Shown piece after piece: positions 8,585 through 61,226 of a stretch of 64,000 bases of DNA. The DNA is from an uncultured Candidatus Actinomarina sp. Lineage in GTDB: Bacteria > Actinomycetota > Acidimicrobiia > Actinomarinales > Actinomarinaceae. The stretch's first letter is position 1; each line of letters starts with the position of its first letter. Location of the stretch: NCBI GenBank assembly GCA_902595195.1, contig CACJPC010000001.1, positions 150,654 to 214,653 on the forward strand. The letters are read 5' to 3'. The notes under the pieces are model-generated. The model saw only the letters and a program-made list of their open reading frames with translations, ran no database searches and was not told where the DNA came from. The position numbers and the translations under genes were made by a program.

Positions 8585-8637
8585 TGGGCCCTACAGGATT
8601 TGAACCTGTGACTTCTTCCTTGTAAGGGAAGCGCTCT
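8585..8637 (-). pseudogene. Truncated tRNA-Val (anticodon UAC) remnant: 3' ~53 nt only
   Basis: The reverse complement reads AGAGC G CTTCC CTTACAA GGAAG AAGTC ACAGG TTCAAAT CCTGT AGGGCCC A. That covers the D-stem 3' strand through the discriminator. The sequence where the 5' acceptor and D arm should be (8638 onward) does not fit. Confidence 0.75.
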
Positions 8638-8667
8638 TGAAATAAAATGGTGACTTTTTGGTGACTT

Positions 8668-8769
8668 TTGAAATAAAACTCCTGAAAAATGCAGTGGGCC
8701 TAGTTAGATTTGAACTAACGACCTCATCCTTATCAGGGATGCGCTCTAACCAGGCTGAGCTATAGGCCC
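8668..8769. repeat. Direct repeat copy 2 (tRNA-Ile gene plus 3' flank), partner at 4110..4211
   Basis: See copy 1. Immediately adjacent, 8638-8678 contains the scar-like word arrangement TGAAATAAAA-TGGTGACTTTTT-GGTGACTTTT-GAAATAAAA. Confidence 0.85.
8695..8769 (-). tRNA. tRNA-Ile (anticodon GAU), canonical copy
   Basis: Same cloverleaf as 4137..4211 but with the canonical anticodon loop CTGATAA (U33). No encoded CCA. Confidence 0.9.
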
Positions 8770-8857
8770 TTATGTCTAATTAACATTAGTCTATCAAAAG
8801 AAATATTTAAATTTTTTTTTCATTTACTCTCAAATTCGAGGCATAATATTAAAGCGA

Positions 8858-8930
8858 GGGGATGTAGCTCAGCTGGAAGAGCACCTGCTTTGCAAGCAGG
8901 GGGTCGTGGGTTCAAGTCCCATCATCTCCA
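8858..8930 (+). tRNA. tRNA-Ala (anticodon UGC)
   Basis: GGGGATG TA GCTC AGCTGGAA GAGC A CCTGC TTTGCAA GCAGG GGGTC GTGGG TTCAAGT CCCAT CATCTCC A. It carries the G3:U70 alanine identity pair. Confidence 0.9.
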
Positions 8931-17744: not shown

Positions 17745-17833
17745 GGAGGGATCGCATAGTCTGGCCTAGTGCGCACGCTTGGAAAGCGTGTAAGGGTTTA
17801 TCCCCTTCGAGGGTTCGAATCCCTCTCCCTCCG
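17745..17833 (+). tRNA. tRNA-Ser (anticodon GGA)
   Basis: GGAGGGA acceptor, anticodon stem-loop CACGC TTGGAAA GCGTG, long variable arm and T-arm GAGGG TTCGAAT CCCTC. Confidence 0.9.
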
Positions 17834-17847
17834 CGTAAAAACCATCT

Positions 17848-17933
17848 GGAGGGATGGCCGAGCGGACGAAGGCGATAGTCTTGAAAACTATTGTATGTAT
17901 TCCATACCGTGGGTTCGAATCCCACTCCCTCCG
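17848..17933 (+). tRNA. tRNA-Ser (anticodon UGA)
   Basis: GGAGGGA acceptor, ATAGT CTTGAAA ACTAT, long variable arm and T-arm GTGGG TTCGAAT CCCAC. Confidence 0.9.
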
Positions 17934-17940
17934 CTGACTT

Positions 17941-18027
17941 GGAGAGGTGACTGAGTGGCCTAAAGTGCTCGCCTGCTAAGCGAGTGGGGAAGAAATTCCC
18001 TCGAGGGTTCGAATCCCTCCCTCTCCG
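17941..18027 (+). tRNA. tRNA-Ser (anticodon GCU)
   Basis: GGAGAGG acceptor, CTCGC CTGCTAA GCGAG, long variable arm and T-arm GAGGG TTCGAAT CCCTC. Confidence 0.9.
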
Positions 18028-18031
18028 CAAA

Positions 18032-18105
18032 GCGCCCGTAGCTTAACTGGATAGAGCATCTGACTACGGATCAGAAGGTTGGGGGTTCGACTCCCTCCGG
18101 GCGTG
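18032..18105 (+). tRNA. tRNA-Arg (anticodon ACG; the substrate of TadA)
   Basis: GCGCCCG TA GCTT AACTGGATA GAGC A TCTGA CTACGGA TCAGA AGGTT GGGGG TTCGACT CCCTC CGGGCGT G. Confidence 0.9.
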
Positions 18106-31735: not shown

Positions 31736-33826
31736 TTATAGTTTTCTTGATGAATTCAAAACTACGGAAATGCTTGATAGTGCCATGGCTAAAGCTGCTA
31801 AATTTGGAGTAATTACCCCAGACACAGCCAATGGAATCATTGAGGTGTTGTAAACAAAAGCAAGGAATAGATTTTGATAAATTCTACTTTTAGATTTTTT
31901 TGATAATTTAAAAATTTCAGAAATTGTATCTAAACCGCCCTTGTGAATTAAAATATCACCAGCTACTTGTGCTATTTGACTACTACTAGAGGTAGTTATA
32001 CCAATATCCGCTTGTTTTATTGAAGGGGAATCATTTACTCCATCTCCAACATAAATAATTTTTTCTTCTAGTTGTTTATTTTTAATAAAGTCTAACTTTT
32101 CTTCTGGAGATTTATTTGAATGATATTTGTCCACCCCAATACTTTTAGCAAACTTTTCAACATTTACTTCTTTATCTCCAGAGAGAATAATTATTTCTTT
32201 TTCATCTTTCAGTATATTTAAGAAATTTGACGATACGGATACCTCTTCTTCTAAGTAAAGGTCAATTTTTTGCTCGTCAATTTTAACAATGATTGAAGAC
32301 TCGTTAGAGTCTTCATTTTTTTCAATTAAAACTTTTTTCTCATCAACTATACCTTGTATCCCCAAGCCAGGAACTTCCTTGACATTATCAGCTTTAAGCA
32401 ACTTCAAATCTCGTAATTCTGCTTCATAAACAATACTTCTTGCAATCGGATGCTGAGAATAGCTTTCAAGACTTGCAATAATTTGTAAAATTGTATTTTC
32501 CGTTAGAGCTGTATTATTGTCGATCTTTGATATTTTAAAAATACCAGAAGAAAGGGTACCTGTTTTATCAAAAATAAGAGTATTTATATCACCAAATTTT
32601 TGCAAAATATCAAAATTTTTGAATAAGTATCCCTGTTTCTTACTGAGAGTTGCAGTCTTAAACAAAACTATTGGAGTTGCTAAGCCTAATGCACAAGGAC
32701 ATGCAATCACCAAAACTGCTATTGAATTTTTTAAGGCATCTAATAATGTGAAATCGCTTATGAAGAATCTAAATAGGAAAGTTAGAAGACTAATAAAAAG
32801 AACAACTGGAACGAAGTATTGAGTTACTTTGTCCAATGATTTTTGAATCTCTGGTTTAGTTGCTTGAGCCGTTCTAATTAATTCTTCAATTATGTTGTAG
32901 GTAGATTTTTGATAAGACTCTTGGACAGAGACTTTTATTGCACCATCTAAATTTATACTTCCACCTACAACTAAGTCCCTAGGATTTTTAACTAGAGGAA
33001 TTGACTCTCCAGTTAATAGACTTTCATCAACGGTTGTTGAACCTTCTAAAACAACACCATCAACAGGAATAATCTCTCCAGGGCTTACTTTAAATAAATC
33101 ACCAATTGCAACCTCTTTAATAGGTACTTCAAGATGTTCCCCACCTCTTTCCACAATTAAAGTTTTAGGCATTCTGCTTTTTATTGATTCAGATTCATTT
33201 ACGGATTCCTCTATAACCTTATCTTCTATTGCTTTACCAATTAAGATAAATGAAACTATGAAAGCCCCGGTATCTAGGAACATTTTATTATTTGTGATTG
33301 ATAAATCAGAGCCTAGGACAGTGCTTGGTAACAATGAAATAATAAGCGCACTCAAGCTACCGATTGAAATTAGAGTATCCATATTAAAATCAAAAAATTT
33401 AATTTTTTTAAAAGCAGAAATATGAAAATTTCTACCAAGTATCAAGATAACAAAAGAGCCTATTGCATAAGATAAGATATCTAGCCCAGCCTCAAATGTA
33501 AATCTGAGAATGTAAGTAAGAAACAATGAAAATAAAGGTATTAAAAATTTAAATCTAACTTTACTACCTGAACTAAGGCTGTCTGCTTCTTTTGCCTTAT
33601 AGCCAATAGTGTTTACTTTTTTAATTAAATTATCAACATCAAATTCATCATTATTTTTAATGTCAACAATTGCAGACTTTAAAGGAAAGCTTACAGATAC
33701 GTCTAGGACATCTTCTTGTTTTGAAATTACTCGTTCTATCCGTGCAGCACATGCAGCACATGTCATGCCCTCGATGTCTAAATTTAAAGTATTATTCTGA
33801 CTGGACAACTGTGTAGCCTTGTTCAT
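31736..33826 (-). CDS. copA: copper-translocating P1B-type ATPase
   Basis: N-terminal HMA GMTCAACAARIE, TGES, the CPC motif (ACPCALGLATP), DKTGTL and GDGVNDSP. Confidence 0.95.
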   Translation of the reverse strand: MNKATQLSSQNNTLNLDIEGMTCAACAARIERVISKQEDVLDVSVSFPLKSAIVDIKNNDEFDVDNLIKKVNTIGYKAKEADSLSSGSKVRFKFLIPLFSLFLTYILRFTFEAGLDILSYAIGSFVILILGRNFHISAFKKIKFFDFNMDTLISIGSLSALIISLLPSTVLGSDLSITNNKMFLDTGAFIVSFILIGKAIEDKVIEESVNESESIKSRMPKTLIVERGGEHLEVPIKEVAIGDLFKVSPGEIIPVDGVVLEGSTTVDESLLTGESIPLVKNPRDLVVGGSINLDGAIKVSVQESYQKSTYNIIEELIRTAQATKPEIQKSLDKVTQYFVPVVLFISLLTFLFRFFISDFTLLDALKNSIAVLVIACPCALGLATPIVLFKTATLSKKQGYLFKNFDILQKFGDINTLIFDKTGTLSSGIFKISKIDNNTALTENTILQIIASLESYSQHPIARSIVYEAELRDLKLLKADNVKEVPGLGIQGIVDEKKVLIEKNEDSNESSIIVKIDEQKIDLYLEEEVSVSSNFLNILKDEKEIIILSGDKEVNVEKFAKSIGVDKYHSNKSPEEKLDFIKNKQLEEKIIYVGDGVNDSPSIKQADIGITTSSSSQIAQVAGDILIHKGGLDTISEIFKLSKKSKSRIYQNLFLAFVYNTSMIPLAVSGVITPNLAALAMALSSISVVLNSSRKL

Positions 33827-34001
33827 CTAACAGTTGAGAAACATTCATCATGTCTAAATCAGAAGATGAGATAACTTCAACAGATTTTTCCTCAATATCA
33901 ACTGAAACGCTTTCTATTGATTCAACATTATTTAATGTAGATTCAATCGTATCCTTACAATGACCACAACTGATTTCAGGAACTGTAAATACAACATTCA
34001 T
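33792..34001 (-). CDS. copZ: copper chaperone CopZ (HMA domain)
   Basis: MNVVFTVPEISCGHCKDTIE (C-x2-C metal site). I prefer ATG 34001 over TTG 34010. Overlaps the copA start by 35 nt. Confidence 0.85.
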   Translation of the reverse strand: MNVVFTVPEISCGHCKDTIESTLNNVESIESVSVDIEEKSVEVISSSDLDMMNVSQLLDEQGYTVVQSE

Positions 34002-34033
34002 AATTATCAATATTAATACTTGGCGGGCTATAA

Positions 34034-34061
34034 ATAAGCCCCTAATTTCTTAGGGGCTTAT
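34034..34061 (-). terminator. GC-rich 12-bp hairpin (ATAAGCCCCTAA-tttc-TTAGGGGCTTAT) between the CCCH gene and copZ: terminator/attenuator candidate
   Basis: Perfect 12-bp stem with a 4-nt loop, followed on the transcribed (minus) strand by UUAU AGCC, a weak U tract. It is conspicuously GC-rich in an AT-rich context. Confidence 0.35.
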
Positions 34062-34063
34062 AA

Positions 34064-34085
34064 GAAATCTCTTGGGGGAGATTTC
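34064..34085 (-). other. Second hairpin (GAAATCTC-ttgggg-GAGATTTC) in the copZ leader
   Basis: Perfect 8-bp stem with a 6-nt loop. It is flanked at 34087-34093 by a second TTAGGGG that could pair with CCCCTAA of hairpin 34034..34061 instead. Confidence 0.3.
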
Positions 34086-34105
34086 GTTAGGGGGGTCTTT
34101 AAAAC

Positions 34106-34300
34106 TTAAGCAGTTTCTTGTAGAATTCTGCCTCTAACTCTAGGATATTTCACAGGAGCATGATTGAAGCAGTGATCTCTCTTGTTATAAATACTTAATT
34201 GAGTACTACAAGATTCATCTTTGCACACTCTGCCCTGGTCAAAACTCTTTGATGGCCTAATTCCGCCCTTTATTTGACTCGCTTTTAATCCGTCTGTCAT
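34106..34300 (-). CDS. small C-X4-C-X12-C-X2-H protein (64 aa), unrecognised family; paralog of 57919..58119
   Basis: MTDGLKASQIKGGIRPSKSFDQGRVCKDESCSTQLSIYNKRDHCFNHAPVKYPRVRGRILQETA. About 55-60% identical by eye to the 66-aa paralog, with all four Cys/His ligand positions and the YPRVRG tail conserved. AAGGA Shine-Dalgarno upstream. Confidence 0.7.
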   Translation of the reverse strand: MTDGLKASQIKGGIRPSKSFDQGRVCKDESCSTQLSIYNKRDHCFNHAPVKYPRVRGRILQETA

Positions 34301-34318
34301 TTTATTCCTTTATATACT

Positions 34319-34336
34319 TTGTGAATATATTCACAA
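34319..34336. promoter_or_regulatory. Perfect CRP/GlxR-type site tTGTGA-ATATAT-TCACAa
   Basis: 18-bp perfect palindrome centred about 27 nt upstream of the ATG at 34300. It matches the TGTGA-N6-TCACA consensus of the CRP/FNR family exactly. Confidence 0.55.
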
Positions 34337-34365: not shown

Positions 34366-36264
34366 TTAAATAAGCAAGTTCTTTTGAAATAAAAAAGCTT
34401 CATCATCCCACTTTCTACCTAGGAAGCTTTCCACCATATTTTCTGCAGGAATAGTACCTCCAGGCTTGAGAATCTTATTTTTGTAATCAACACCTACTGA
34501 ATTTGAAAGCACTCCTTCATTTTCAAATCTGCTAAACAAGTCATCACCAATAATTTCTGCCCATAAGTATCCATAGTAAGCAGCATCATATCCACCAAGT
34601 AAATGACCAAATGCTGCCAAATGATTTGTATCTTTGGGATAGGCGATATTAGTTACTACCTGAGAAGCTTGTTCGATTTGTAAAAGGTCATCATTGAAAT
34701 TCTCACCATGCATATGTTGATCAGCAAGCCCAAAAGATACTTGCCTTAATGCCAACAAACTAACTCCAATGTTTTTTGATTCGTTTAACTTTTTACATAG
34801 TTGTTCAGACAATGGTTCTGAAGTTTCAATATGTTTTGAAATCCTTTTTAAGCACTCTACTTTCCAAACCCAGTGCTCCATAATCTGACTAGGAGCTTCC
34901 ACAAAATCCCACTCACAATTTGCACCCACAAACCTTGTATATTTTGATTTACCAATTCCATTATGCAAGACATGACCAAATTCATGAAACAAGGTTTCAA
35001 CTTCATCAAAAGTCATAAGTCCATCTCCTGTATTAGGATTTGGAAAATTTGCGACCATTGAACATATTGGTAACTCTTGCCTATCGGAACCACCGGAAGA
35101 AATATCAAATACTGCTGCATGGGTAAACTTTCCTTCTCTTGGATAGAGGTCTAAATAAAAGTAAGCTAGTTGTTCACCATTTTTTTCCCACAAAGACCAA
35201 AGTTCAACATCTTCATGCCACGCAGTTTCATTTGATTCTGACTTAATTTCTAAATCAAAAACTTCTTCACAAACTTTGAACATTTCATTTTTTACATCAT
35301 GAATAAAAAAATATTTTTTTAATTCACTATTTTCTATATTGCTAGTTTTGCTTCTTTTTGATGAAATAAAGTATCGAATATCCCATGGTGAGATATCAGT
35401 AATTTCAATATCATCTATTACAAGGTCTTTTTTTTCTTTCTCAGCAGCTTTTTGTAACTTAGGAATTAAATCTTTATACATAGCATCAACATTTTTTGGA
35501 TTTTTTGCCATTCTGTTTTGCAATCTATATTCAGCCCATGTTTCAAATCCAAACAATTTAGATTTTTCATTTCTTAGCAAAACAGCTTCTTTAAGGATTG
35601 GAATATTATCTTCTACAGCCCGATTATTAAAAGCTTTCCAAACTATTTCTCTTGTGTTCCTGACATTACAGTTCTCAGATATTGCATTTACATCTGGATA
35701 TGCCATTGTAATAATAAATTTTTCTTCATCTTTTTTTAAGTTGTTAAGTTCATTTTTGCTTAAACCGCTTAATTCAACTTCTGAAAATCTAAGCTCTGTT
35801 TTATCTTTTGCTATATTTTCTGAAAAAGCGATACCAAGCTCTATAAGCCTTTTATCAATTTCTATTAACCTATTTCTGCTTTCATCTGACAAACCATGAC
35901 CAGCATTTTTAAAATCTATGCCTAAATCTTTGTGAAACTCAATACTCTCTTTATCTGCATCTGAAATATCAATTTCATTATATTTTTTGTAAAGATCATC
36001 ATCATTAAATATTTCAAGTGCAAAATTTTGTATTTTAGAATCTGCTTCATTTCCAAAATCTCTAATCTTTTCTTCAGGGTGTACATCTCCAAGAAAAGCA
36101 ATCCTTCCTGAAACGTCATAAACTGTACTTTCTAAATCATTAAAATCATTTAAATTAACGCTTGTTGATGACTTTATGTTTTCAACTAATTTTTTACATT
36201 CTTCTAAAGTGTTATCCAAATCATTATTCAAGCTCTCTAGGTTTGCCTCAGAATAGTTAAACAT
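34366..36264 (-). CDS. M3 family zinc metallopeptidase (oligopeptidase / Dcp-like)
   Basis: HEFGHVLH zinc motif with a downstream E (EAPSQIMEHW). 632 aa. Confidence 0.85.
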   Translation of the reverse strand: MFNYSEANLESLNNDLDNTLEECKKLVENIKSSTSVNLNDFNDLESTVYDVSGRIAFLGDVHPEEKIRDFGNEADSKIQNFALEIFNDDDLYKKYNEIDISDADKESIEFHKDLGIDFKNAGHGLSDESRNRLIEIDKRLIELGIAFSENIAKDKTELRFSEVELSGLSKNELNNLKKDEEKFIITMAYPDVNAISENCNVRNTREIVWKAFNNRAVEDNIPILKEAVLLRNEKSKLFGFETWAEYRLQNRMAKNPKNVDAMYKDLIPKLQKAAEKEKKDLVIDDIEITDISPWDIRYFISSKRSKTSNIENSELKKYFFIHDVKNEMFKVCEEVFDLEIKSESNETAWHEDVELWSLWEKNGEQLAYFYLDLYPREGKFTHAAVFDISSGGSDRQELPICSMVANFPNPNTGDGLMTFDEVETLFHEFGHVLHNGIGKSKYTRFVGANCEWDFVEAPSQIMEHWVWKVECLKRISKHIETSEPLSEQLCKKLNESKNIGVSLLALRQVSFGLADQHMHGENFNDDLLQIEQASQVVTNIAYPKDTNHLAAFGHLLGGYDAAYYGYLWAEIIGDDLFSRFENEGVLSNSVGVDYKNKILKPGGTIPAENMVESFLGRKWDDEAFLFQKNLLI

Positions 36265-54136: not shown

Positions 54137-54520
54137 CTATCTTCGTATGGATTTATCTGACTTTTTAACGATTTCGTTTCTGTAACTTTTGTGAATTTCT
54201 TTTTCTTTATTTTTAGAGTCAATTTTTTGATTTGAAATCTCATTCTCAAGCAAGAGAATTTTATTTTGTAGTTCTTCTATTTTGTCTTTCATTTCGTAAA
54301 TAATTTTTATTCCATCTAAATTAATTCCCCTTTGAGAAAGGTTTTGAATTTGAATTAATTTATCGATGTCTTCTTGAGAGTATCGTCTTGTACCACCACC
54401 AGTTCTATATGGTTTTATTAAGCCTTTCATTTCATATGTCCTAATAGTTTGTTGATGAATCCCAGACAAGCTTGAGGCTACAGAAATAAAATATATTGCT
54501 TTTGAATCTTCGTTACTCAT
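54137..54520 (-). CDS. hspR: MerR-family heat-shock repressor HspR
   Basis: HTH block YFISVASSLSGIHQQTIRTYEMKGLIKPYRTGGGTRRYSQEDIDKL and position as the last gene of the dnaK operon. ATGAGTAA-type overlap with the dnaJ stop (start ATG 54520). Confidence 0.85.
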   Translation of the reverse strand: MSNEDSKAIYFISVASSLSGIHQQTIRTYEMKGLIKPYRTGGGTRRYSQEDIDKLIQIQNLSQRGINLDGIKIIYEMKDKIEELQNKILLLENEISNQKIDSKNKEKEIHKSYRNEIVKKSDKSIRR

Positions 54521-55598
54521 ACAAATAATCCCTTGGGGAATCTCCAGACTCAAATTGATCTCTATAGTTTTCTAGATGTTTTTTTGCAGACCTTGATAAA
54601 TTTGTTGGAGGGGTTATGTAAACTTTTACAAATAAATCTCCAGGCCTTCTGCCTTGCGGAGCAATTCCCTCACCTTTTATTTTGAACGTTTTACCACTTG
54701 GAGTACCTGCAGGAACTTTTAATGTTACAGATTTTTCAAGCGTTGGTATTTTTACACTTGCACCAAGAGCAGCCTCTGTAAATAGCAAAGGAACTTCAAG
54801 AATAAGATCACTGTTACTTCTCTTAAAAAATTTGTGTGGTTCAACAGCAACTTGAACTAATAAATCTCCATCTGGCGCACCCGCATCCCCAGGACCTCCT
54901 CTTCCACGTAATCTAATCACTGTTCCATTATCAACTCCTGCAGGCACTTTTACTTTTATAGATTCATTTTCAACAACAGAACCAGAACTCCTACATGTTT
55001 TACATGCTTTATCAATAACATTTCCTTGACCCTTACAGGCAGAACAAGTTTGTGCAAAAGAAAAAAAACCTTGATTAGAGGCAGTTTGTCCACTTCCGTT
55101 GCAAATGTTACATCTATGAAACGCCTCTCCTTTATCAGCTCCAGTGCCTTTACAAGCCGAACAAGCAACTTCTTTACGTAGAGGTATTACAGTTTCTACG
55201 CCCTTAGCTGCTTCATCAAAAGATATGTTTATATTTGTTTGATATGTCTGGCCTTTTCTTCTTCCACCAGAGCCTCCAAATCCAAAAATATCACCTAAAT
55301 TTCCAAACAAGTCACCAAAATCGTCTACATTGAATCCCTGACCACCAAAGCCTCCAAAACCCGAAGCTCCCATTGCACGTACTTGATCGTATTCTTGTCT
55401 TTTTCTTTCATCTCCCAAAACTGAGCTTGCTTCTGAAATTTCTTTGAATTTCTTTTCTGCTTCTGTATCACCTGGATTTAAATCTGGGTGATTTTCTCTG
55501 GCTAATTTTTTATACGCTTTTTTTATATCTTCGGTGCTAGCATCTTTTGAGACACCTAGTGTGGCGTAAAAATCCTTGTCTAACCAGTCCCTACTCAC
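54513..55598 (-). CDS. dnaJ: chaperone DnaJ
   Basis: J domain with HPD (NHPDLNPGD), a G/F region and four CxxCxGxG repeats. Confidence 0.95.
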   Translation of the reverse strand: MSRDWLDKDFYATLGVSKDASTEDIKKAYKKLARENHPDLNPGDTEAEKKFKEISEASSVLGDERKRQEYDQVRAMGASGFGGFGGQGFNVDDFGDLFGNLGDIFGFGGSGGRRKGQTYQTNINISFDEAAKGVETVIPLRKEVACSACKGTGADKGEAFHRCNICNGSGQTASNQGFFSFAQTCSACKGQGNVIDKACKTCRSSGSVVENESIKVKVPAGVDNGTVIRLRGRGGPGDAGAPDGDLLVQVAVEPHKFFKRSNSDLILEVPLLFTEAALGASVKIPTLEKSVTLKVPAGTPSGKTFKIKGEGIAPQGRRPGDLFVKVYITPPTNLSRSAKKHLENYRDQFESGDSPRDYLYE

Positions 55599-56091
55599 TT
55601 TTAACTTTTACCATTGCAGGGCGAATTAATTTACCTTGAAATAGATAACCTTTTCTTAAGATTGTTTCAACTACTTGAGTTTCTCCCTCTCCCGAATGCT
55701 CAACAGCCTCATGCATAGAGGGATCAAAATTTTCTCCAATAGTTCCAATTTCTTCAACCTGCAGACCCTCTAAAACTGAAGTTAGAAGGTTGTTGAAAGT
55801 TTCAAGTTCTTCTGAAACTTCTTCTTGATTCATAGCCATATCAAAGTTATCGATTAGTGGGAAAAGAGAGTTAACAAAATAAGCAACAGATGCTGCACTT
55901 ATACTTTCTTTTTCTTTTTCAGTTCTCTTTTTGAAATTATCAAATTCTGCAGCAAGTCTTAGATAGTCGTCTTTTATTTTTTCATATTGTGAAAGAGGTA
56001 CTGAAGTTTCTTCATTTACATTTTTCTCATCTAAAGATTCTCCAGAAGTATTATCTACTTCCTCAATCAAAGACTCTTCTTCTTTACTCAT
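55591..56091 (-). CDS. grpE: nucleotide exchange factor GrpE
   Basis: [12 protein letters not shown] and the C-terminal GY..GK.IRPAMV pattern. Confidence 0.9.
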
Positions 56092-57892
56092 CCTCTACAA
56101 CTTCACCTTCAACTACGTCATCTGACTCATCTGAAGATGGATTAGCTGTGTCATTTTGAGCTTCCGCGTATAATTTCTCGGCAAATGATTGACTGGCTTT
56201 TGCAAGTTCATCAATACCATTTTTCAAATCATCAATCGATAATTCTTCATTCTCTAAAAGTTTTTTCAGTTTATCGTTTGCATCATTGATTGCTGTTACC
56301 TCTTCATCTGTTGCCTTGTCTTTATTTTCTTCCAACATTTTTTCAGTTGAGGTAACCATACCTTCAGCCATGTTTCTGGTTTCAATAAGCTCTTTCTTTT
56401 TTGCATCTTCATTAGCATGCTGTTCAGCATCTTTTATCATTCTTTCGATTTCATCATCTTCAAGTGCTGTACCGCCAGTAATTGTTATTGCTTGTTCTTT
56501 ACCAGTTCCTAGATCTTTAGCATTGACATTCACAATACCATTAGCATCGATATCAAAAGTTACCTCTATTTGAGGTGTACCAGCCATTGCTGCAGGTATA
56601 TCAGTTAATGTGAATCTTCCTAGGGACTTATTCCCAGAAGCCATTTCTCTCTCACCTTGCAAGATATGGATTTCAACCTGGGTTTGATTGTTTTCAGCCG
56701 TACTAAATACTTCAGACCTTTTAGTTGGAATTGTTGTATTTCTTTCAATCATTTTGGTCATGATTCCACCTTTAGTTTCAACACCCAAAGTAAGAGGTGT
56801 AACATCTAATAAAAGAACATCTTTTACATCACCTTTTAGTACTCCAGCTTGAATAGCAGCTCCAGATGCAACAACTTCATCAGGATTAACACCTTTATGA
56901 GGGTCTTTACCAGTAAGAGATTTTACAAGTTGTTGGACTGATGGCATTCGAGTCGAACCACCAACTAATATGACATGATCGATATCAGAAAATTTCATTC
57001 CAGCATCAGACAATGCATTTTCGACTGGTTCTTTAGTTCTTTCTACTAAATCTGCAGTAATTTTTTCAAACTCAGATCTACTTAATTTTTCAAGCAAATG
57101 TTGAGGTCCAGCATCATTAGCAGTAATGAATGGCAAGTTAATTTCTGTTTCGCTGGTAGATGAAAGTTCAATCTTAGCTTTTTCTGCAGCTTCTTGAACT
57201 CTCTGAATTGCCATTTTATCATTTGATAAATCAATTCCAGTTGAGGATTTAAACTTTTCAATTAACCAGTCCATTACTCTTTGGTCCCAGTCATCTCCAC
57301 CAAGCTTAGAATCTCCTGATGTTGACTTTACTTCGAACACACCCTCAGAAATTTCTAATATAGAAACATCAAAAGTACCACCACCTAAATCAAATACGAG
57401 TATTTTTTGATCTTCATTGTTTTCTAGCCCGTATGAAAGGGATGCAGCAGTAGGTTCATTTATAATTCTTAAGACATTCAATCCTGCGATTTGACCGGCC
57501 TCTTTCGTTGCTTGCCTTTCAGCATCATTAAAATATGCTGGAACAGTAATTACAGCATCTGTAACGTCGTCGCCTAAATATGACTCAGCATCTCTTTTGA
57601 GTTTTTGTAATATTCTTGCAGATATTTCTTGAGGTGTATAGTCTTTACCTTCAAAGCTTTCTTTCCAATTTGTTCCAATATGTCTTTTGATAGATCTAAC
57701 AGTGTTATCCGGATTTGTTACCGCTTGTCTTTTTGCAAGTTCACCAACTAGAACTTCTTCTGATTTAAAAGCAACAATAGAAGGTGTTGTTCTATTTCCC
57801 TCTGCGTTAGCAATAACAGTTGGCTCACCACCTTCAAGCACTGCTACAACACTGTTTGTTGTTCCCAAATCAATTCCTACAGCCTTACCCAT
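56084..57892 (-). CDS. dnaK: chaperone DnaK (Hsp70)
   Basis: [23 protein letters not shown] and [11 protein letters not shown] signatures. Confidence 0.98.
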
Positions 57893-57918
57893 CTTGTATA
57901 TTTCCTTTCATAAAATTA

Positions 57919-58119
57919 TTAAATTGGTTCCTGCTCTCTCGGCAAATGTCCTCTTACTCTTGGATAGGAGATAGGAGCATGCAGAAAGCAAAATTTCTTT
58001 TTGTTATAAACACTAATTACAGTCTCACAAGCTTCAAATGCGCAAACTCTACCAGTGGTATATTTTTTTGATCTTCTAACACCTGGCTTAACTTGTGAGG
58101 CAGTTAATGTTCCGCTCAT
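57919..58119 (-). CDS. small C-X4-C-X12-C-X2-H protein (66 aa), first gene of the dnaK operon; paralog of 34106..34300
   Basis: MSGTLTASQVKPGVRRSKKYTTGRVCAFEACETVISVYNKKKFCFLHAPISYPRVRGHLPREQEPI. Its stop is only 26 nt upstream of the dnaK ATG on the same strand. AAGGAAGG Shine-Dalgarno upstream. Confidence 0.7.
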   Translation of the reverse strand: MSGTLTASQVKPGVRRSKKYTTGRVCAFEACETVISVYNKKKFCFLHAPISYPRVRGHLPREQEPI

Positions 58120-58154
58120 TTTAACCTTCCTTATCTAATTATATTTTGATATAT

Positions 58155-58178
58155 AATCTAAGTATAAATACTTAGATT
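58155..58178. promoter_or_regulatory. Inverted repeat AATCTAAGTA-taaa-TACTTAGATT upstream of the CCCH-dnaK operon (candidate HspR operator, HAIR-like in position)
   Basis: 10-bp perfect arms, 36-59 nt upstream of ATG 58119. A TATAAT (minus strand, 58138-58143) lies between it and the Shine-Dalgarno, so the repeat sits where a -35 would be. Confidence 0.5.
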
Positions 58179-58282
58179 TATAAATAAGATAACACATTTG
58201 TAAATTTATGCAAAAAATTTTAAAAAAAAGATAAAAAAAGTGCAATTTTAGTAATTATTAATCCACCTGATATTATTGAATA

Positions 58283-59077
58283 ATGAAAAAGATAGATATT
58301 AATATCTTAGGGCTCGGGAATTTAGGAACTGCTTTTTTTGAAGGTTTGCAATCAAACAACAATCTTAATCTACATTTATATGAGGAAAATGATCAAATTA
58401 GAACTGATTTTTCCAAATCATATGGTGTAGAAGTTGCTTCACATATCGATAGTCTTGATTCAGGAGTATTAATACTTTGCATTAAACCACAAAGCATAAA
58501 TACTTTTTTTGATTCGTTTTCCAAAAACATAAGCACTGATATCCTCATTTGCTCGCCTGTTGCTGGTTTAGAAATTGAAACAATACACAAATATGTTGAA
58601 AATAGAATCATCAGGATAATGCCAAATCTATTAATTAGAAAAAATAATGGATTTATTCCATATGTTAAAAATTATGATGGTGACTACTTAAGCTTTTTAG
58701 AAATAGCATTATCTTCTTTAGGGACAACTAAAGAATTTGTTGAGAAATTTTTTCCACTTGTTACAGCAATATCAGGAAGTGGCCCAGCGTGGTACTATGA
58801 GCTTTCAAGGCAACTTACAAATTCAGCTACTCAATTAGGCATGGATGAAGTTGATGCTGAAGAACTTGTTAAAGAATTAATCAAAGCTTTACCAAACCTT
58901 ATTAACACAGAAGATTCTTTTGGGGAGTTAGTAAATAAAGTGAAATCACCAAAAGGAACAACTGAAGCAGGACTTGATTCGCTTAATGATGATTCCTTTG
59001 ATACAATAATTTTCAATGCAATTCAAAAGTCAACAAATAGATCAATTGAGATATCGGCTGAATTAAAAAATGAATAA
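58283..59077 (+). CDS. proC: pyrroline-5-carboxylate reductase
   Basis: N-terminal GLGNLG dinucleotide fold and C-terminal SPKGTTEAGL signature. Confidence 0.85.
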   Translation: MKKIDINILGLGNLGTAFFEGLQSNNNLNLHLYEENDQIRTDFSKSYGVEVASHIDSLDSGVLILCIKPQSINTFFDSFSKNISTDILICSPVAGLEIETIHKYVENRIIRIMPNLLIRKNNGFIPYVKNYDGDYLSFLEIALSSLGTTKEFVEKFFPLVTAISGSGPAWYYELSRQLTNSATQLGMDEVDAEELVKELIKALPNLINTEDSFGELVNKVKSPKGTTEAGLDSLNDDSFDTIIFNAIQKSTNRSIEISAELKNE

Positions 59078-61226
59078 ATTAAAAAGCCTAAAGGGCAATG
59101 ATTATGTTTTACTTTTGTCTGCAGGAGCTTCAATCGGCACTCTATTTCTATGGGCAGCTAGCTATATTTTTCCTGAAGGAGAGATAATTGAAGGCAGACG
59201 TGTTTTTGAAAATATTCCTAAAGTAATTCAATATATATTTTATGTCTTAAGTGCTTCTACTATTTTTCTATCTGGTTACCTTTTTTCTCTTAGGGTTAAA
59301 AACTGGACAAGAGGAAAAGAAGAAAAAAGAAACGTAAAATTTTCTGCTCGTATTTGGAGTTTCTTTGATGGAGTAACAATGAGAACAGTACTTAGATTTA
59401 AAGCTGCTGGACTGATGCACTCGTTAATATACATAGGTTTTCTCGGTTTGTTTGCTGGAACTATTACGCTTGAGATCCACCATTTAATGCCACCAAGTCT
59501 CAAGTTTTTACAAGGAACAACATATATTGTCTATTCATTCCTTCTGGAGTTGGCAACCATTGCTTATCTAGTTGGACTTTTCTGGGCTTTAATCAGAAGG
59601 TTAAGAGGTGCAGAATACCGAATACAAACAAAAACAACAATTGATGATTATCTAACATTGTCTCTGTTAATTTTTATTGGCATATCCGGCATTACTACAG
59701 AAGCTGGAAGAATTGCACTTGAAAATTTTCCCAATTATGAGAAGTGGTCATTTATAGGATATTTTGTTGCTGATTTCTTAAATTTATCAAACCCTGATTT
59801 ATTTCACAGAGTTTCTTGGGTTTTACACGTTGTTTCGTTCTTTGTGTTTTTGATTGCATTACCTATCTCTAAGTTACGCCACATTATTACATCTCCAATA
59901 AACATGTTTATGTCACCTAAGGAGAGACATAAAGGCGCTATGAGAGATATTGGAAACCTACTAGAGGCGGAAGATATTGATAATGTTGGCACAGAAATGA
60001 TTGACCATTTCACATGGAAACAACTTATGGACTTAGATGCTTGCACAGTTTGTGGAAGATGTACTTCAGTATGTCCAGCAAATCAAACAGGTAAATCTCT
60101 TGACCCAAGAGAGATAATCTTAAAAGTAGGGCAAGTAATGTCAGAGTCTGGAGATCCCTCTGTTCCAGCAACTATCAGCACTCCAGGACCCCTAAAAGTA
60201 AACTCATCAAATGTTTTTGAAAGAATAACTTCCGAAGAAGTCTGGGCCTGCACTTCGTGTAGAGCTTGTGATGAGATATGTCCTGTAAATATAGAAATTT
60301 TGGACAAGATACTTGATATGAGAAGACATCTAGCTTTGATGGAATCAGATTTTCCTTCAGAACTTGGTAAAGCTTATGTTGCAATGGAGAATTCATCTAA
60401 TCCTTGGGGGGCATCACAAAACGATCGTTTGAAGTGGACGGAAGATCTCGATTTTGAGGTACCTGTCATTGATGAGTCGAACTCTGAAGAATACGATTAT
60501 TTATACTGGATCGGATGTGCCGGAGCTTTCGACGATAGAAATGTGCCTGTGACAAAAGCTGTTGCGACACTTTTAAAGCGAGCTGGAGTGTCTTACGCTG
60601 TTTTGGGGCCCAAGGAAGTTTGTACAGGAGATTCTGCGCGAAGAACAGGTAATGAATTTGTTTTTCAACAACTTGCGATACAAAATATTGAAAACATGAA
60701 CAATCTAAAAGTAGATAAGATCATTACACAGTGTCCACACTGTTTTAATACTATTGCAAACGAATATCCTCAACTAGGCGGCGAGTATAAAGTTATTCAT
60801 CACAGTCAATTACTAACAGAACTTGTTCAGTCTGGGAGAATAGAAGTTGGAACAAGTGACAAGCCTTACAAAATTACATATCATGACTCATGTTACTTAG
60901 GTAGACATAATGACATTTATACAGCACCGAGAGAAATCGTCGGCTCAATTGGTGGAATAGAAATTAGAGAAATGAAGCGCCAAGGAACTCAGAGCTTTTG
61001 CTGTGGTGCTGGCGGTGGAAGAATGTGGATGGAAGAGTCTGTTGGCAAAAAAGTAAACATTGAAAGATCCCAAGAAGCAATTGAGACCGGTGCTGATGAA
61101 GTCGCAGTTGCTTGTCCATTTTGTTACATAATGATGGATGACGGTGTTAAAGAACTTGGCTATGGGGATAATGTAAGAGTTAGAGACGTTTCTTTAATAC
61201 TTTTAGACAACCTTAAAAAAGACTAG
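59070..61226 (+). CDS. membrane-anchored (Fe-S)-binding oxidoreductase, HdrD/GlpC-like (Rv0338c-type)
   Basis: About 290 aa N-terminal polytopic domain, two ferredoxin-type motifs (CTVCGRCTSVCP, CTSCRACDEICP) and two CCG-type Cys-rich domains (WIGCAG..., FCCGAGGG). ATGAATAA overlap with proC. Confidence 0.8.
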   Translation: MNKLKSLKGNDYVLLLSAGASIGTLFLWAASYIFPEGEIIEGRRVFENIPKVIQYIFYVLSASTIFLSGYLFSLRVKNWTRGKEEKRNVKFSARIWSFFDGVTMRTVLRFKAAGLMHSLIYIGFLGLFAGTITLEIHHLMPPSLKFLQGTTYIVYSFLLELATIAYLVGLFWALIRRLRGAEYRIQTKTTIDDYLTLSLLIFIGISGITTEAGRIALENFPNYEKWSFIGYFVADFLNLSNPDLFHRVSWVLHVVSFFVFLIALPISKLRHIITSPINMFMSPKERHKGAMRDIGNLLEAEDIDNVGTEMIDHFTWKQLMDLDACTVCGRCTSVCPANQTGKSLDPREIILKVGQVMSESGDPSVPATISTPGPLKVNSSNVFERITSEEVWACTSCRACDEICPVNIEILDKILDMRRHLALMESDFPSELGKAYVAMENSSNPWGASQNDRLKWTEDLDFEVPVIDESNSEEYDYLYWIGCAGAFDDRNVPVTKAVATLLKRAGVSYAVLGPKEVCTGDSARRTGNEFVFQQLAIQNIENMNNLKVDKIITQCPHCFNTIANEYPQLGGEYKVIHHSQLLTELVQSGRIEVGTSDKPYKITYHDSCYLGRHNDIYTAPREIVGSIGGIEIREMKRQGTQSFCCGAGGGRMWMEESVGKKVNIERSQEAIETGADEVAVACPFCYIMMDDGVKELGYGDNVRVRDVSLILLDNLKKD

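Follow-up and report, generated by a model that had tools for sequence, protein, structure and literature searches.

Upstream of dnaK in an uncultured Candidatus Actinomarina sp., we identified a small gene, here called X1, that appears to be the first cistron of the dnaK-grpE-dnaJ-hspR operon and that belongs to a family of basic Cys3-His proteins found in the class Acidimicrobiia and in their phages. The analysis covers a 64,000-nucleotide (nt) stretch (contig CACJPC010000001.1, positions 150,654 to 214,653; 33% GC), referred to below as the window. X1 occupies the open reading frame (ORF) at 57919..58119 on the minus strand and encodes a protein of 66 amino acids (aa), and a paralog, X2, lies at 34106..34300 on the same strand (64 aa), close to genes for copper efflux. 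Outside the Actinomarinales, the prevailing chromosomal place of the family is the third position of the sigH-rsrA operon. We refer to the family as X, and tentatively suggest that its members are stress-induced zinc-knuckle factors that dock on nucleic acid or on RNA polymerase (RNAP).

The X1 frame starts with ATG, 5 nt from a strong Shine-Dalgarno sequence (AAGGAAGG, 58125..58132, minus strand), and its stop codon is 26 nt from the dnaK ATG (57892). The arrangement described in an earlier note on this DNA, a small ORF with a good Shine-Dalgarno sequence 26 nt before dnaK and on its strand, is thus confirmed, and that strand is the minus strand. A purine-rich GGA core is retained at the Shine-Dalgarno position in all relatives in the upstream alignment. 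The translation, MSGTLTASQVKPGVRRSKKYTTGRVCAFEACETVISVYNKKKFCFLHAPISYPRVRGHLPREQEPI (66 aa, isoelectric point (pI) 9.95), carries the motif C26-x4-C31-x12-C44-x2-H47. Across Actinomarinales X1 is 78-98% identical, comparable to DnaK. In pairwise comparisons the ratio of nonsynonymous to synonymous substitution (dN/dS) is 0.066 for X1 and 0.027 for X2, with dS > 1 for both and saturated for X1. X1 and X2 align without gaps at 53% identity (E = 4e-26); the paralogy proposed earlier is therefore real, at an identity slightly lower than the 55-60% estimated by eye.

A chance ORF is excluded because of these dN/dS ratios at dS > 1 and because hundreds of homologs keep the ligand positions invariant. 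Judged by this pattern of substitution, X1 and X2 are protein-coding genes under very strong purifying selection, and X1 is a real, translated and strongly basic protein of ~7.5 kDa. The shortness of X1, its absence from annotation and the failure of a strict promoter scan to yield a promoter would fit a nonfunctional frame, either a leader or upstream ORF or a chance ORF within the dnaK 5' untranslated region (UTR). Against this stand the low dN/dS with saturated dS, the residues that are invariant across 40%-identical homologs from genomes of 28-70% GC, the strong Shine-Dalgarno sequence, and an AlphaFold2 (AF2) model that reaches a predicted local distance difference test (pLDDT) score of 85 with a deep alignment. 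The conservation data already effectively refute a nonfunctional ORF, and we give the idea next to no credence.

An exhaustive profile hidden Markov model search over 1.84 billion cluster representatives returned 962 family representatives at E <= 1e-3, of which 96 reached E <= 1e-10; with few exceptions they are 55-100 aa long. The best E-values were 5e-37 (P0005, the closest representative) and 2e-33 (P0050). In a 118-sequence alignment, C26, C31, N39, C44 and H47 are invariant, R24, S36, Y38, R56 and G57 are conserved in at least 95% of sequences, T33, L35, P53 and R54 in ~86-88%, and R15 in ~80%. The exact C-x4-C-x12-C-x2-H spacing occurs in 133 of 138 diverse top matches, and the median pI is 10.2. 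The earlier note had made its proposal depend on the conservation of the four Cys/His positions in homologs, and these are the positions found to be invariant. We define the family, under the name SigH-operon CCCH protein, as proteins of ~54-70 aa with a basic N-terminal arm, the motif R-x-C-x4-C-x-T-x-L-S-x-Y-N-x4-C-x2-H and a P-R-x-R-G tail. X1 and X2 have all of the invariant positions.

Every family member is named 'hypothetical protein' in its source, and no search of X1, X2 or diverse members against Pfam, NCBIfam, PHROGs and PADLOC came close to a curated cut-off. Our literature search turned up no account of this family, which thus appears to be undescribed, as do its fold assignment and its fixed positions in the sigH-rsrA and dnaK operons; the general kind, a small metal-Cys accessory protein in a stress regulon, is familiar. 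With no Pfam or NCBIfam model the family escapes annotation, and for many of its genes the call or the start is wrong. Two metagenome proteins have unusual architectures. One (P0016, 88 aa) begins as the N-terminal part of ribosomal protein S17 and continues as X1 from RRSKKY, a peptide that the two have in common; this chimera probably arose during assembly through a short identical stretch, and accounts for an odd precomputed Ribosomal_S17 Pfam tag. The other (P0248, 108 aa) has an RsrA-like N-terminus (HLRECATC, H-x3-C-x2-C) followed by the C-terminal half of X, with the first Cys missing, and may be a genuine fusion or else the product of a frameshift or of read-through between neighbouring genes.

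The genes that follow X1 on the minus strand are dnaK (56084..57892; Pfam HSP70, E = 1e-248), grpE (55591..56091; Pfam GrpE), dnaJ (54513..55598; Pfam DnaJ, DnaJ_CXXCXGXG and DnaJ_C) and, as the last gene of the operon, hspR (54137..54553), which encodes a MerR-family heat-shock repressor (NCBIfam NF047375 HspR equivalog, 106.9 bits versus a cut-off of 105). The listed hspR ORF begins at a TTG and shares 41 nt with the end of dnaJ (54513-54553); as the match to the HspR profile sets in at residue 19, translation probably starts at a site further downstream. Scanning one genome per species of the Genome Taxonomy Database (GTDB) returned 80 Actinomarinales loci. An X1-type gene is followed by dnaK-grpE in 57/57 loci, and in the same 57/57 proC lies upstream in divergent orientation. 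The gap between X1 and dnaK is ~14-40 nt in 50 distinct Actinomarinales sequences and contains only the dnaK Shine-Dalgarno sequence. A terminator consensus scan of 57700-58400 found none, in agreement with the earlier claim that no terminator separates the two genes.

Alignment of the region upstream of X1 from ~50 distinct genomes revealed a sigma-70-like promoter at 58186..58213 (minus strand), with a -35 element TTGCAT (58208-58213), a 16-nt spacer and a -10 element TATCTT (58186-58191) that is TATATT in most relatives. This promoter is too weak for a strict consensus scan and was detected by the comparative alignment. The earlier note had placed the only promoter-like region upstream of X1, which holds; the TATAAT that it proposed, ~20 nt before the ATG, is not conserved, and TTGCAT/TATCTT is. 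Directly downstream of the -10 element is an operator-like inverted repeat resembling the HspR-associated inverted repeat (HAIR), AATCTAAGTAT-NN-ATACTTAGATT (58155..58178, no strand assigned), with 11-nt arms at 58155-58165 and 58168-58178. The palindrome noticed previously is therefore present, with 11-nt rather than 10-bp arms in the window and a conserved core of ATCTAAGT-N6-ACTTAGAT across genomes. Over the ~50 genomes the arms are invariant and the 6-nt spacer is free to vary, which is the signature of a protein operator. A third, TAGAT-like copy just ahead of the X1 Shine-Dalgarno sequence is also conserved.

The published HspR operator consensus is TTGAGY-N7-ACTCAA (PMC2687793). The X1 repeat agrees with it at 4/6 positions per half-site and has a spacer one base shorter, and a deep-branching relative (L056) carries CTTAGT-N7-ACTAAG at this place. 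We infer that the repeat is an HspR site overlapping the transcription start. No other copy of the repeat occurs within the window, and among the matches listed for Actinomarinales genomes the exact repeat is found only at X1-dnaK; as a single site, it provides no independent proof of an HspR box. The 22-nt pattern ATCTAAGT-N6-ACTTAGAT also occurs three times, ~310 nt apart, in a Hyphomicrobiales metagenome-assembled genome (MAG; L271, 5167-5814), where it is a repeat element of an unrelated alphaproteobacterial contig and is unconnected with X1. By every available sequence criterion X1 would be gene 1 of the dnaK-grpE-dnaJ-hspR transcription unit, as the earlier note had proposed, because synteny is complete (57/57), because the conserved promoter and operator lie solely upstream of X1, and because the gap to dnaK is tiny and unstructured. 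On these criteria X1 is counted among the cistrons of the operon, and the assignment of the operator to HspR is a prediction.

The setting of X2 is different. It lies between an M3 peptidase gene upstream (34366..36264, minus strand; Pfam Peptidase_M3) and copZ and copA (33792-34010 and 31736-33826, minus strand; Pfam HMA, and E1-E2_ATPase plus HMA), and copZ-copA follow an X2-type gene in 24/24 Actinomarinales loci. In comparisons that leave out near-identical genomes, X2 is 91-100% identical across Actinomarinales, versus 48-71% for CopZ, 44-70% for CopA and 64-81% for the M3 peptidase. X2 has its own promoter-like region, in which a perfect palindrome, TTGTGAATA/TATTCACAA (34319..34336, no strand assigned), directly follows a -10-like TAnnCT and precedes the X2 Shine-Dalgarno sequence by ~10 nt. 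The palindrome (CTTGTGAATATATTCACAAAG) is essentially invariant in 20 distinct Actinomarinales sequences, even where the upstream gene differs, and may be either an operator or a 5'-UTR hairpin. It has no second copy in the window. An Rfam scan of the window returned tRNAs only; a FourU match at the palindrome (E = 0.59) scored far below the gathering threshold and was rejected.

Two predicted RNA hairpins separate X2 from copZ (34034..34085, minus strand). In the second (34034-34061), a GC-rich stem of 12 bp leads into a U-rich tail, and the spacer as a whole folds at -27.8 kcal/mol (z = -5.9). Among genomes the stem of the second hairpin is maintained while its loops differ, which is the behaviour of an RNA structure, so we regard it as terminator-like. 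The hairpins are found in the window and in closer relatives, and other Actinomarinales lineages have a plain spacer of ~50-70 nt instead. Only ~40 nt separate the terminator-like hairpin from the copZ start, and copZA expression may depend on regulated read-through or attenuation from the X2 promoter. A C-rich tract, GACCCCCC, unusual at 33% GC, precedes the two hairpins within the intergenic region (34015-34105, minus strand).

In a relative with 61% GC (P0083; L220-L222), the M3 peptidase gene is followed by X, a GC-rich terminator hairpin, the gene for a heavy-metal MerR-type regulator and copZ. The neighbourhood of the M3 peptidase, X and the cop genes is therefore old, and X is set apart from the cop genes, which have a sensor of their own wherever the regulator has been retained. 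The earlier note had both paralogs leading stress operons. This stands for X1 and dnaK and needs qualifying for X2 and the copper genes, given the terminator-like hairpin, the separate palindrome and the MerR-type regulator of the relative. X2 is better described as a putative small transcription unit of its own between the M3 peptidase gene and copZ-copA.

Beyond the Actinomarinales, we examined 80 further species-level loci, almost all from Acidimicrobiia MAGs, and counted neighbours in the 74 whose upstream sequence extends to 900 nt or more. In 74/74, X is preceded by genes for an extracytoplasmic function (ECF) sigma factor and a small cytoplasmic anti-sigma factor. The gap between the anti-sigma gene and X has a median of ~36 nt and a range of -1 to 89 nt, and some gene calls overlap. 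The sigma factor passes the NCBIfam SigH_actino model (251.7 and 260.3 versus a cut-off of 251.55), and the anti-sigma factor matches RsrA (TIGR03988, 'mycothiol system anti-sigma-R factor') at 57-73 bits versus a cut-off of 62.5. Downstream there is usually a gene for a small membrane protein, followed by zincin_2, tilS, hpt, ftsH and folP. The sigH-linked proteins are closer to X2 (51-56% identity) than to X1 (40-46%). The linkage to stress operons proposed previously is therefore strong, and extends to a locus type that the earlier note could not have known. A tRNA gene, which looks like Thr-CGU (anticodon loop CTCGTAA), lies immediately upstream of sigH (~40-160 nt) in either orientation in many of these loci (L140-L191), and several share the motif TTGGTAACCTG ~40-50 nt before the sigH start.

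X also occurs divergently from mgtE at another locus, in a mobile region alongside genes for a transposase, methylases and an antitoxin, and in elements of 28-29% GC. In these elements X is the first gene; the divergent gene next to it matches HTH_3 weakly, and the gene that follows X encodes an ATPase with a weak likeness to terminase or TrwB. Phage contigs from IMG/VR (L105-L136, ~34% GC) encode a 54-aa X that keeps the Cys3-His core and has KPVKRWSK in place of the YPRVRG tail; its gene follows those for an endolysin, an exonuclease and a holin-like protein, and precedes a divergent gene and a replication module. Long two-module forms (~105-135 aa; L229 2430-2837, L137 7935-8315) add a second C-x2-C...H...LC module and lie directly upstream of phage portal genes, a slot that usually holds packaging or late-regulatory proteins. 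The idea that X is dedicated to stress operons is contradicted by these phage and mobile copies. The class Acidimicrobiia and their phages are, as judged from these contexts, the home of the family, and the third position of the sigH-rsrA operon is its prevailing chromosomal place.

The AF2 model from the 118-sequence alignment has a mean pLDDT of 85 and almost no regular secondary structure; the model from a 15-sequence alignment was poor (pLDDT 59). Foldseek with the AF2 model returned 0 matches in PDB and nothing below E = 0.4 in BFVD. PDB was also searched by sequence, with one single sequence and with two profiles; none of the matches was significant, and they were to Termicin, the RAR1 CHORD domain (2xcm_E, the best, E = 0.54) and the SBP zinc finger (E = 0.9-4). 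In Pfam, matches below threshold were to CxC6 in 12/41 diverse members (best E = 0.0013-0.006; 19.4 bits versus a cut-off of 27.5), to EsV-1-7 in 4/41 (EsV_1_7, 13.6 versus 25) and to the WRKY19 zinc finger, all of which have in common the C-x4-C...C-x2-H knuckle. The earlier note could place the spacing in no zinc-finger family that it knew. No curated family claims X, and parallels do exist in SBP site 1 and the CHORD N-lobe. Its further statement that X is not WhiB, not an FmdB/Ruc-type CxxC ribbon and not DksA/TraR agrees with the absence of profile matches and with the different ligand spacing.

Several assignments could be dismissed. There was no DksA/TraR match, and X lacks the C-x2-C...C-x2-C(4) spacing of DksA/TraR and Ogr/Delta; one long-form member alone matched Ogr_Delta (E = 0.03, 14.7 bits versus a cut-off of 26.3). 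An HNH/His-Me finger was rejected, as there is no conserved His or Asp-His between C31 and N39 and no Pfam or PHROG HNH match; the sole HNH match in BFVD had E = 6.7. Zinc-type uS14, a lead by eye, had a probability of 0.04% in hhalign, using a uS14 sequence entered by hand, and the PDB profile searches gave no ribosomal chain at E <= 10.

WhiB-like proteins offer a functional analogy. They are ~80-120 aa, have a basic tail and dock on the sigma subunit of RNAP. Like X they are small, basic metal-Cys proteins that are confined to one phylum and its phages and linked to stress or sigma factors. They differ in having four Cys (C-xn-C-x2-C-x5-C) and a [4Fe-4S] cluster, whereas X has Cys3-His with 4/12/2 spacing, is shorter and lacks the GVWGG turn; the WhiB model (PF02467) had no match to X1 or X2 at E <= 10, nor to 41 diverse members at E <= 1. 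SBP site 1 (C-x4-C-x16-C-x2-H), EsV-1-7, WRKY19 and CxC6 share with X the order of ligands and a hydrophobic or aromatic residue in the middle loop, and the SBP domain binds DNA. However, SBP has a middle spacer of 16 and a second zinc site, compared with a spacer of 12 and no second site in X. These are eukaryotic or viral repeat domains, and with all scores under curated cut-offs (<= 19.4 bits versus 25-27.5) we rejected membership; homology with X is not established.

The N-lobe of CHORD, the Hsp90 co-chaperone module of Rar1 and melusin, has the pattern C-x4-C-x13-C-x2-H and, like X, almost no secondary structure. CHORD binds two Zn with interleaved ligands, one through C159, C164, C178 and the distal H218, with H181 on the second Zn (PMC2935968). 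The likeness is therefore one of pattern and not of ligand logic, because the CHORD residues serve two different zincs; CHORD needs six Cys and two His, X has only four ligands, and membership was rejected at E = 0.54. The zinc-binding anti-sigma (ZAS) proteins RsrA and RshA resemble X in being small zinc-thiolate proteins of the same operon, and RsrA is a thiol-stress switch. X lacks H-x3-C-x2-C and any zf-HC2 (PF13490) or TIGR03988 match; RsrA is a neighbour of X and not a relative. Heat-shock regulons also include the zinc-Cys proteins Ruc (Rv0991c) and Hsp33, which work together with DnaK/DnaJ/GrpE, and to this the predicted co-transcription of X1 with the DnaK machine offers a parallel; Ruc has two CxxC pairs in an FmdB-type ribbon and a long disordered tail, whereas X is half its size, very basic and without a CxxC pair or a Pfam or NCBIfam match to that ribbon. 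X2 occupies the usual slot of the cop regulators CsoR and heavy-metal MerR, on the same strand upstream of copZ-copA and behind a conserved palindrome, but there is no homology, a terminator-like hairpin precedes copZ, and the relative has a true MerR-type regulator.

The reading that we tentatively favour, while holding it to be possible rather than probable, is that X is a stress-induced zinc-knuckle accessory factor that docks on nucleic acid or on RNAP and its sigma factor. A single Cys3-His site, most likely binding structural Zn(II), would fold a small knuckle flanked by a basic N-terminal arm (R15, K18, R24) and the conserved P-R-x-R-G tail. Of the two copies in Actinomarinales, X1, placed ahead of dnaK, would share a single sigma-70-like promoter with dnaK-grpE-dnaJ-hspR, the start site lying under the HAIR-like repeat, and lifting of HspR repression would lead to X1 being made alongside DnaK. 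X1 would thus be induced by heat or proteotoxic stress, because the repeat is taken to be an HspR operator. The protein would then dock on a conserved macromolecule, likeliest nucleic acid or the RNAP holoenzyme, as a stress-induced accessory transcription factor, similar in logic but not in ancestry to the WhiB-like proteins or RbpA of other Actinobacteria. The thiolate site could confer sensitivity to oxidants or copper. As a subsidiary possibility, X2 might repress both itself and read-through into copZA at the invariant palindrome TTGTGAATATATTCACAA.

Several features favour a nucleic-acid or RNAP partner over a promiscuous chaperone. The family has a pI of 10.2 and strictly conserved polar and basic residues that are not ligands, conservation is at the level seen in proteins that bind core machinery, and phage and mobile copies occupy regulatory or module-boundary positions: first in line beside a divergent HTH_3 gene, next to a switch/replication region, or directly upstream of portal genes. 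Two further points in favour are the SBP zinc finger, a DNA-binding domain that is the best, though non-significant, sequence analog, and the invariance of the X2 palindrome across lineages at the predicted transcription start. Other observations weigh against such a partner. Foldseek was empty in PDB for X and the library searches detected no DNA-binding family. The upstream repeats differ among contexts, stand-alone X genes included, with no common operator or DNA target, and the X1 repeat is more simply explained as an HspR site. The MerR-type regulator of cop genes beside X in the 61%-GC relative weakens the case for X2 as a copper regulator. The sequence of the Cys3-His site cannot tell Zn, Fe-S and Cu apart, and a role as an effector of proteotoxic or thiol stress would unify all three chromosomal contexts equally well.

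Such an effector could be a holdase or co-chaperone whose zinc-thiolate site responds to redox state or copper, on the model of Hsp33 or of Ruc in mycobacteria. Oxidation or copper attack on the Cys3-His site would unfold the protein, and X would bind unfolding clients and hands them to DnaK-DnaJ-GrpE. This would account at once for the three chromosomal contexts (sigH-rsrA, the DnaK machine and adjacency to copper efflux); X is also small, poor in regular secondary structure and endowed with a metal-thiolate site, and as first cistron X1 would be produced in step with DnaK. We nevertheless find it doubtful, since X is very small (63-66 aa) and very basic (pI ~10), its invariant polar non-ligand residues are typical of specific recognition and not of promiscuous client binding, its phage and mobile homologs sit at regulatory or packaging-module positions, and it has no sequence relation to Hsp33 or to FmdB/Ruc ribbons.

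Alternatively, X might be part of the SigH-RsrA switch itself, as an anti-anti-sigma factor, a co-anti-sigma factor, or a zinc donor or acceptor that resets RsrA, with the Actinomarinales copies as repurposed paralogs. The position of X directly after rsrA in 74/74 loci (gaps of -1 to 89 nt, some calls overlapping), the fusion or read-through of an RsrA N-terminus with X in P0248, and the nature of RsrA as a zinc-thiolate switch (TIGR03988) all point in this direction. The family thrives elsewhere, however, before dnaK, by the cop genes, divergent from mgtE and in phages. A scan with an AT-codon pattern for the canonical SigH motif AWLYRILTNT gave no Actinomarinales match, which is weak negative evidence. 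According to a published account (PMC7771536), Actinomarinales possess just two sigma factors and lack two-component systems, yet they maintain two copies of X under very strong selection. On balance this explanation seems rather unlikely to us. Far less plausible still is a stress-made ribosome-associated or ribosomal-protein-like zinc ribbon, an idea prompted by the small, basic, Cys-rich knuckle, a by-eye likeness to zinc-type uS14 (SVY...C spacing), a weak match of a long-form member to eS29/uS14 (E = 0.34) and the S17 chimera joined at RRSKKY: hhalign gave the uS14 comparison (with the hand-entered sequence) a probability of only 0.04%, ribosomal proteins were absent from the PDB profile search at E <= 10, and no locus examined shows linkage to a ribosomal operon.

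A wider interpretation combines docking on RNAP with the sigH-rsrA context. SigH/SigR-RsrA is a textbook redox switch that has been described as a two-gene unit, and the presence of a third gene after rsrA in 74/74 loci points to an unstudied part of this circuit or of its output. X could be an unrecognised third component of the actinobacterial SigH/SigR-RsrA thiol-stress circuit, a Cys3-His docker on RNAP or sigma that is sensitive to redox state or copper, duplicated and wired to the dnaK and copper loci in Actinomarinales and captured by phages. We regard this as speculative and, taken as a whole, improbable. If true, X would be a functional counterpart of the WhiB-like proteins with an unrelated fold, phages would use captured X to manipulate the stress response of the host, and in the streamlined Actinomarinales X may stand in for lost regulators. 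Candidatus Actinomarinales are among the most abundant marine Actinobacteria, with a 1.1-Mb genome and almost no recognisable regulators. A protein that is conserved as tightly as DnaK and present in two copies, at the heat-shock and copper loci, is likely to be key to stress handling in these organisms.

Other features of the window were recorded in passing. Divergent from the X1-dnaK operon are proC and a gene translationally coupled to it (59070-61226, plus strand), which encodes a 718-aa fusion-like protein; this combines a membrane part resembling nitrate reductase gamma with two 4Fe-4S motifs and a pair of HdrD/GlpC-like CCG domains. Two clusters of tRNA genes were also seen, one of three tRNAs at 8591-8930, including a weak, truncated-looking match (29.4 bits, 8591-8646), and one at 17745-18105 with four tRNAs in a row on the plus strand.

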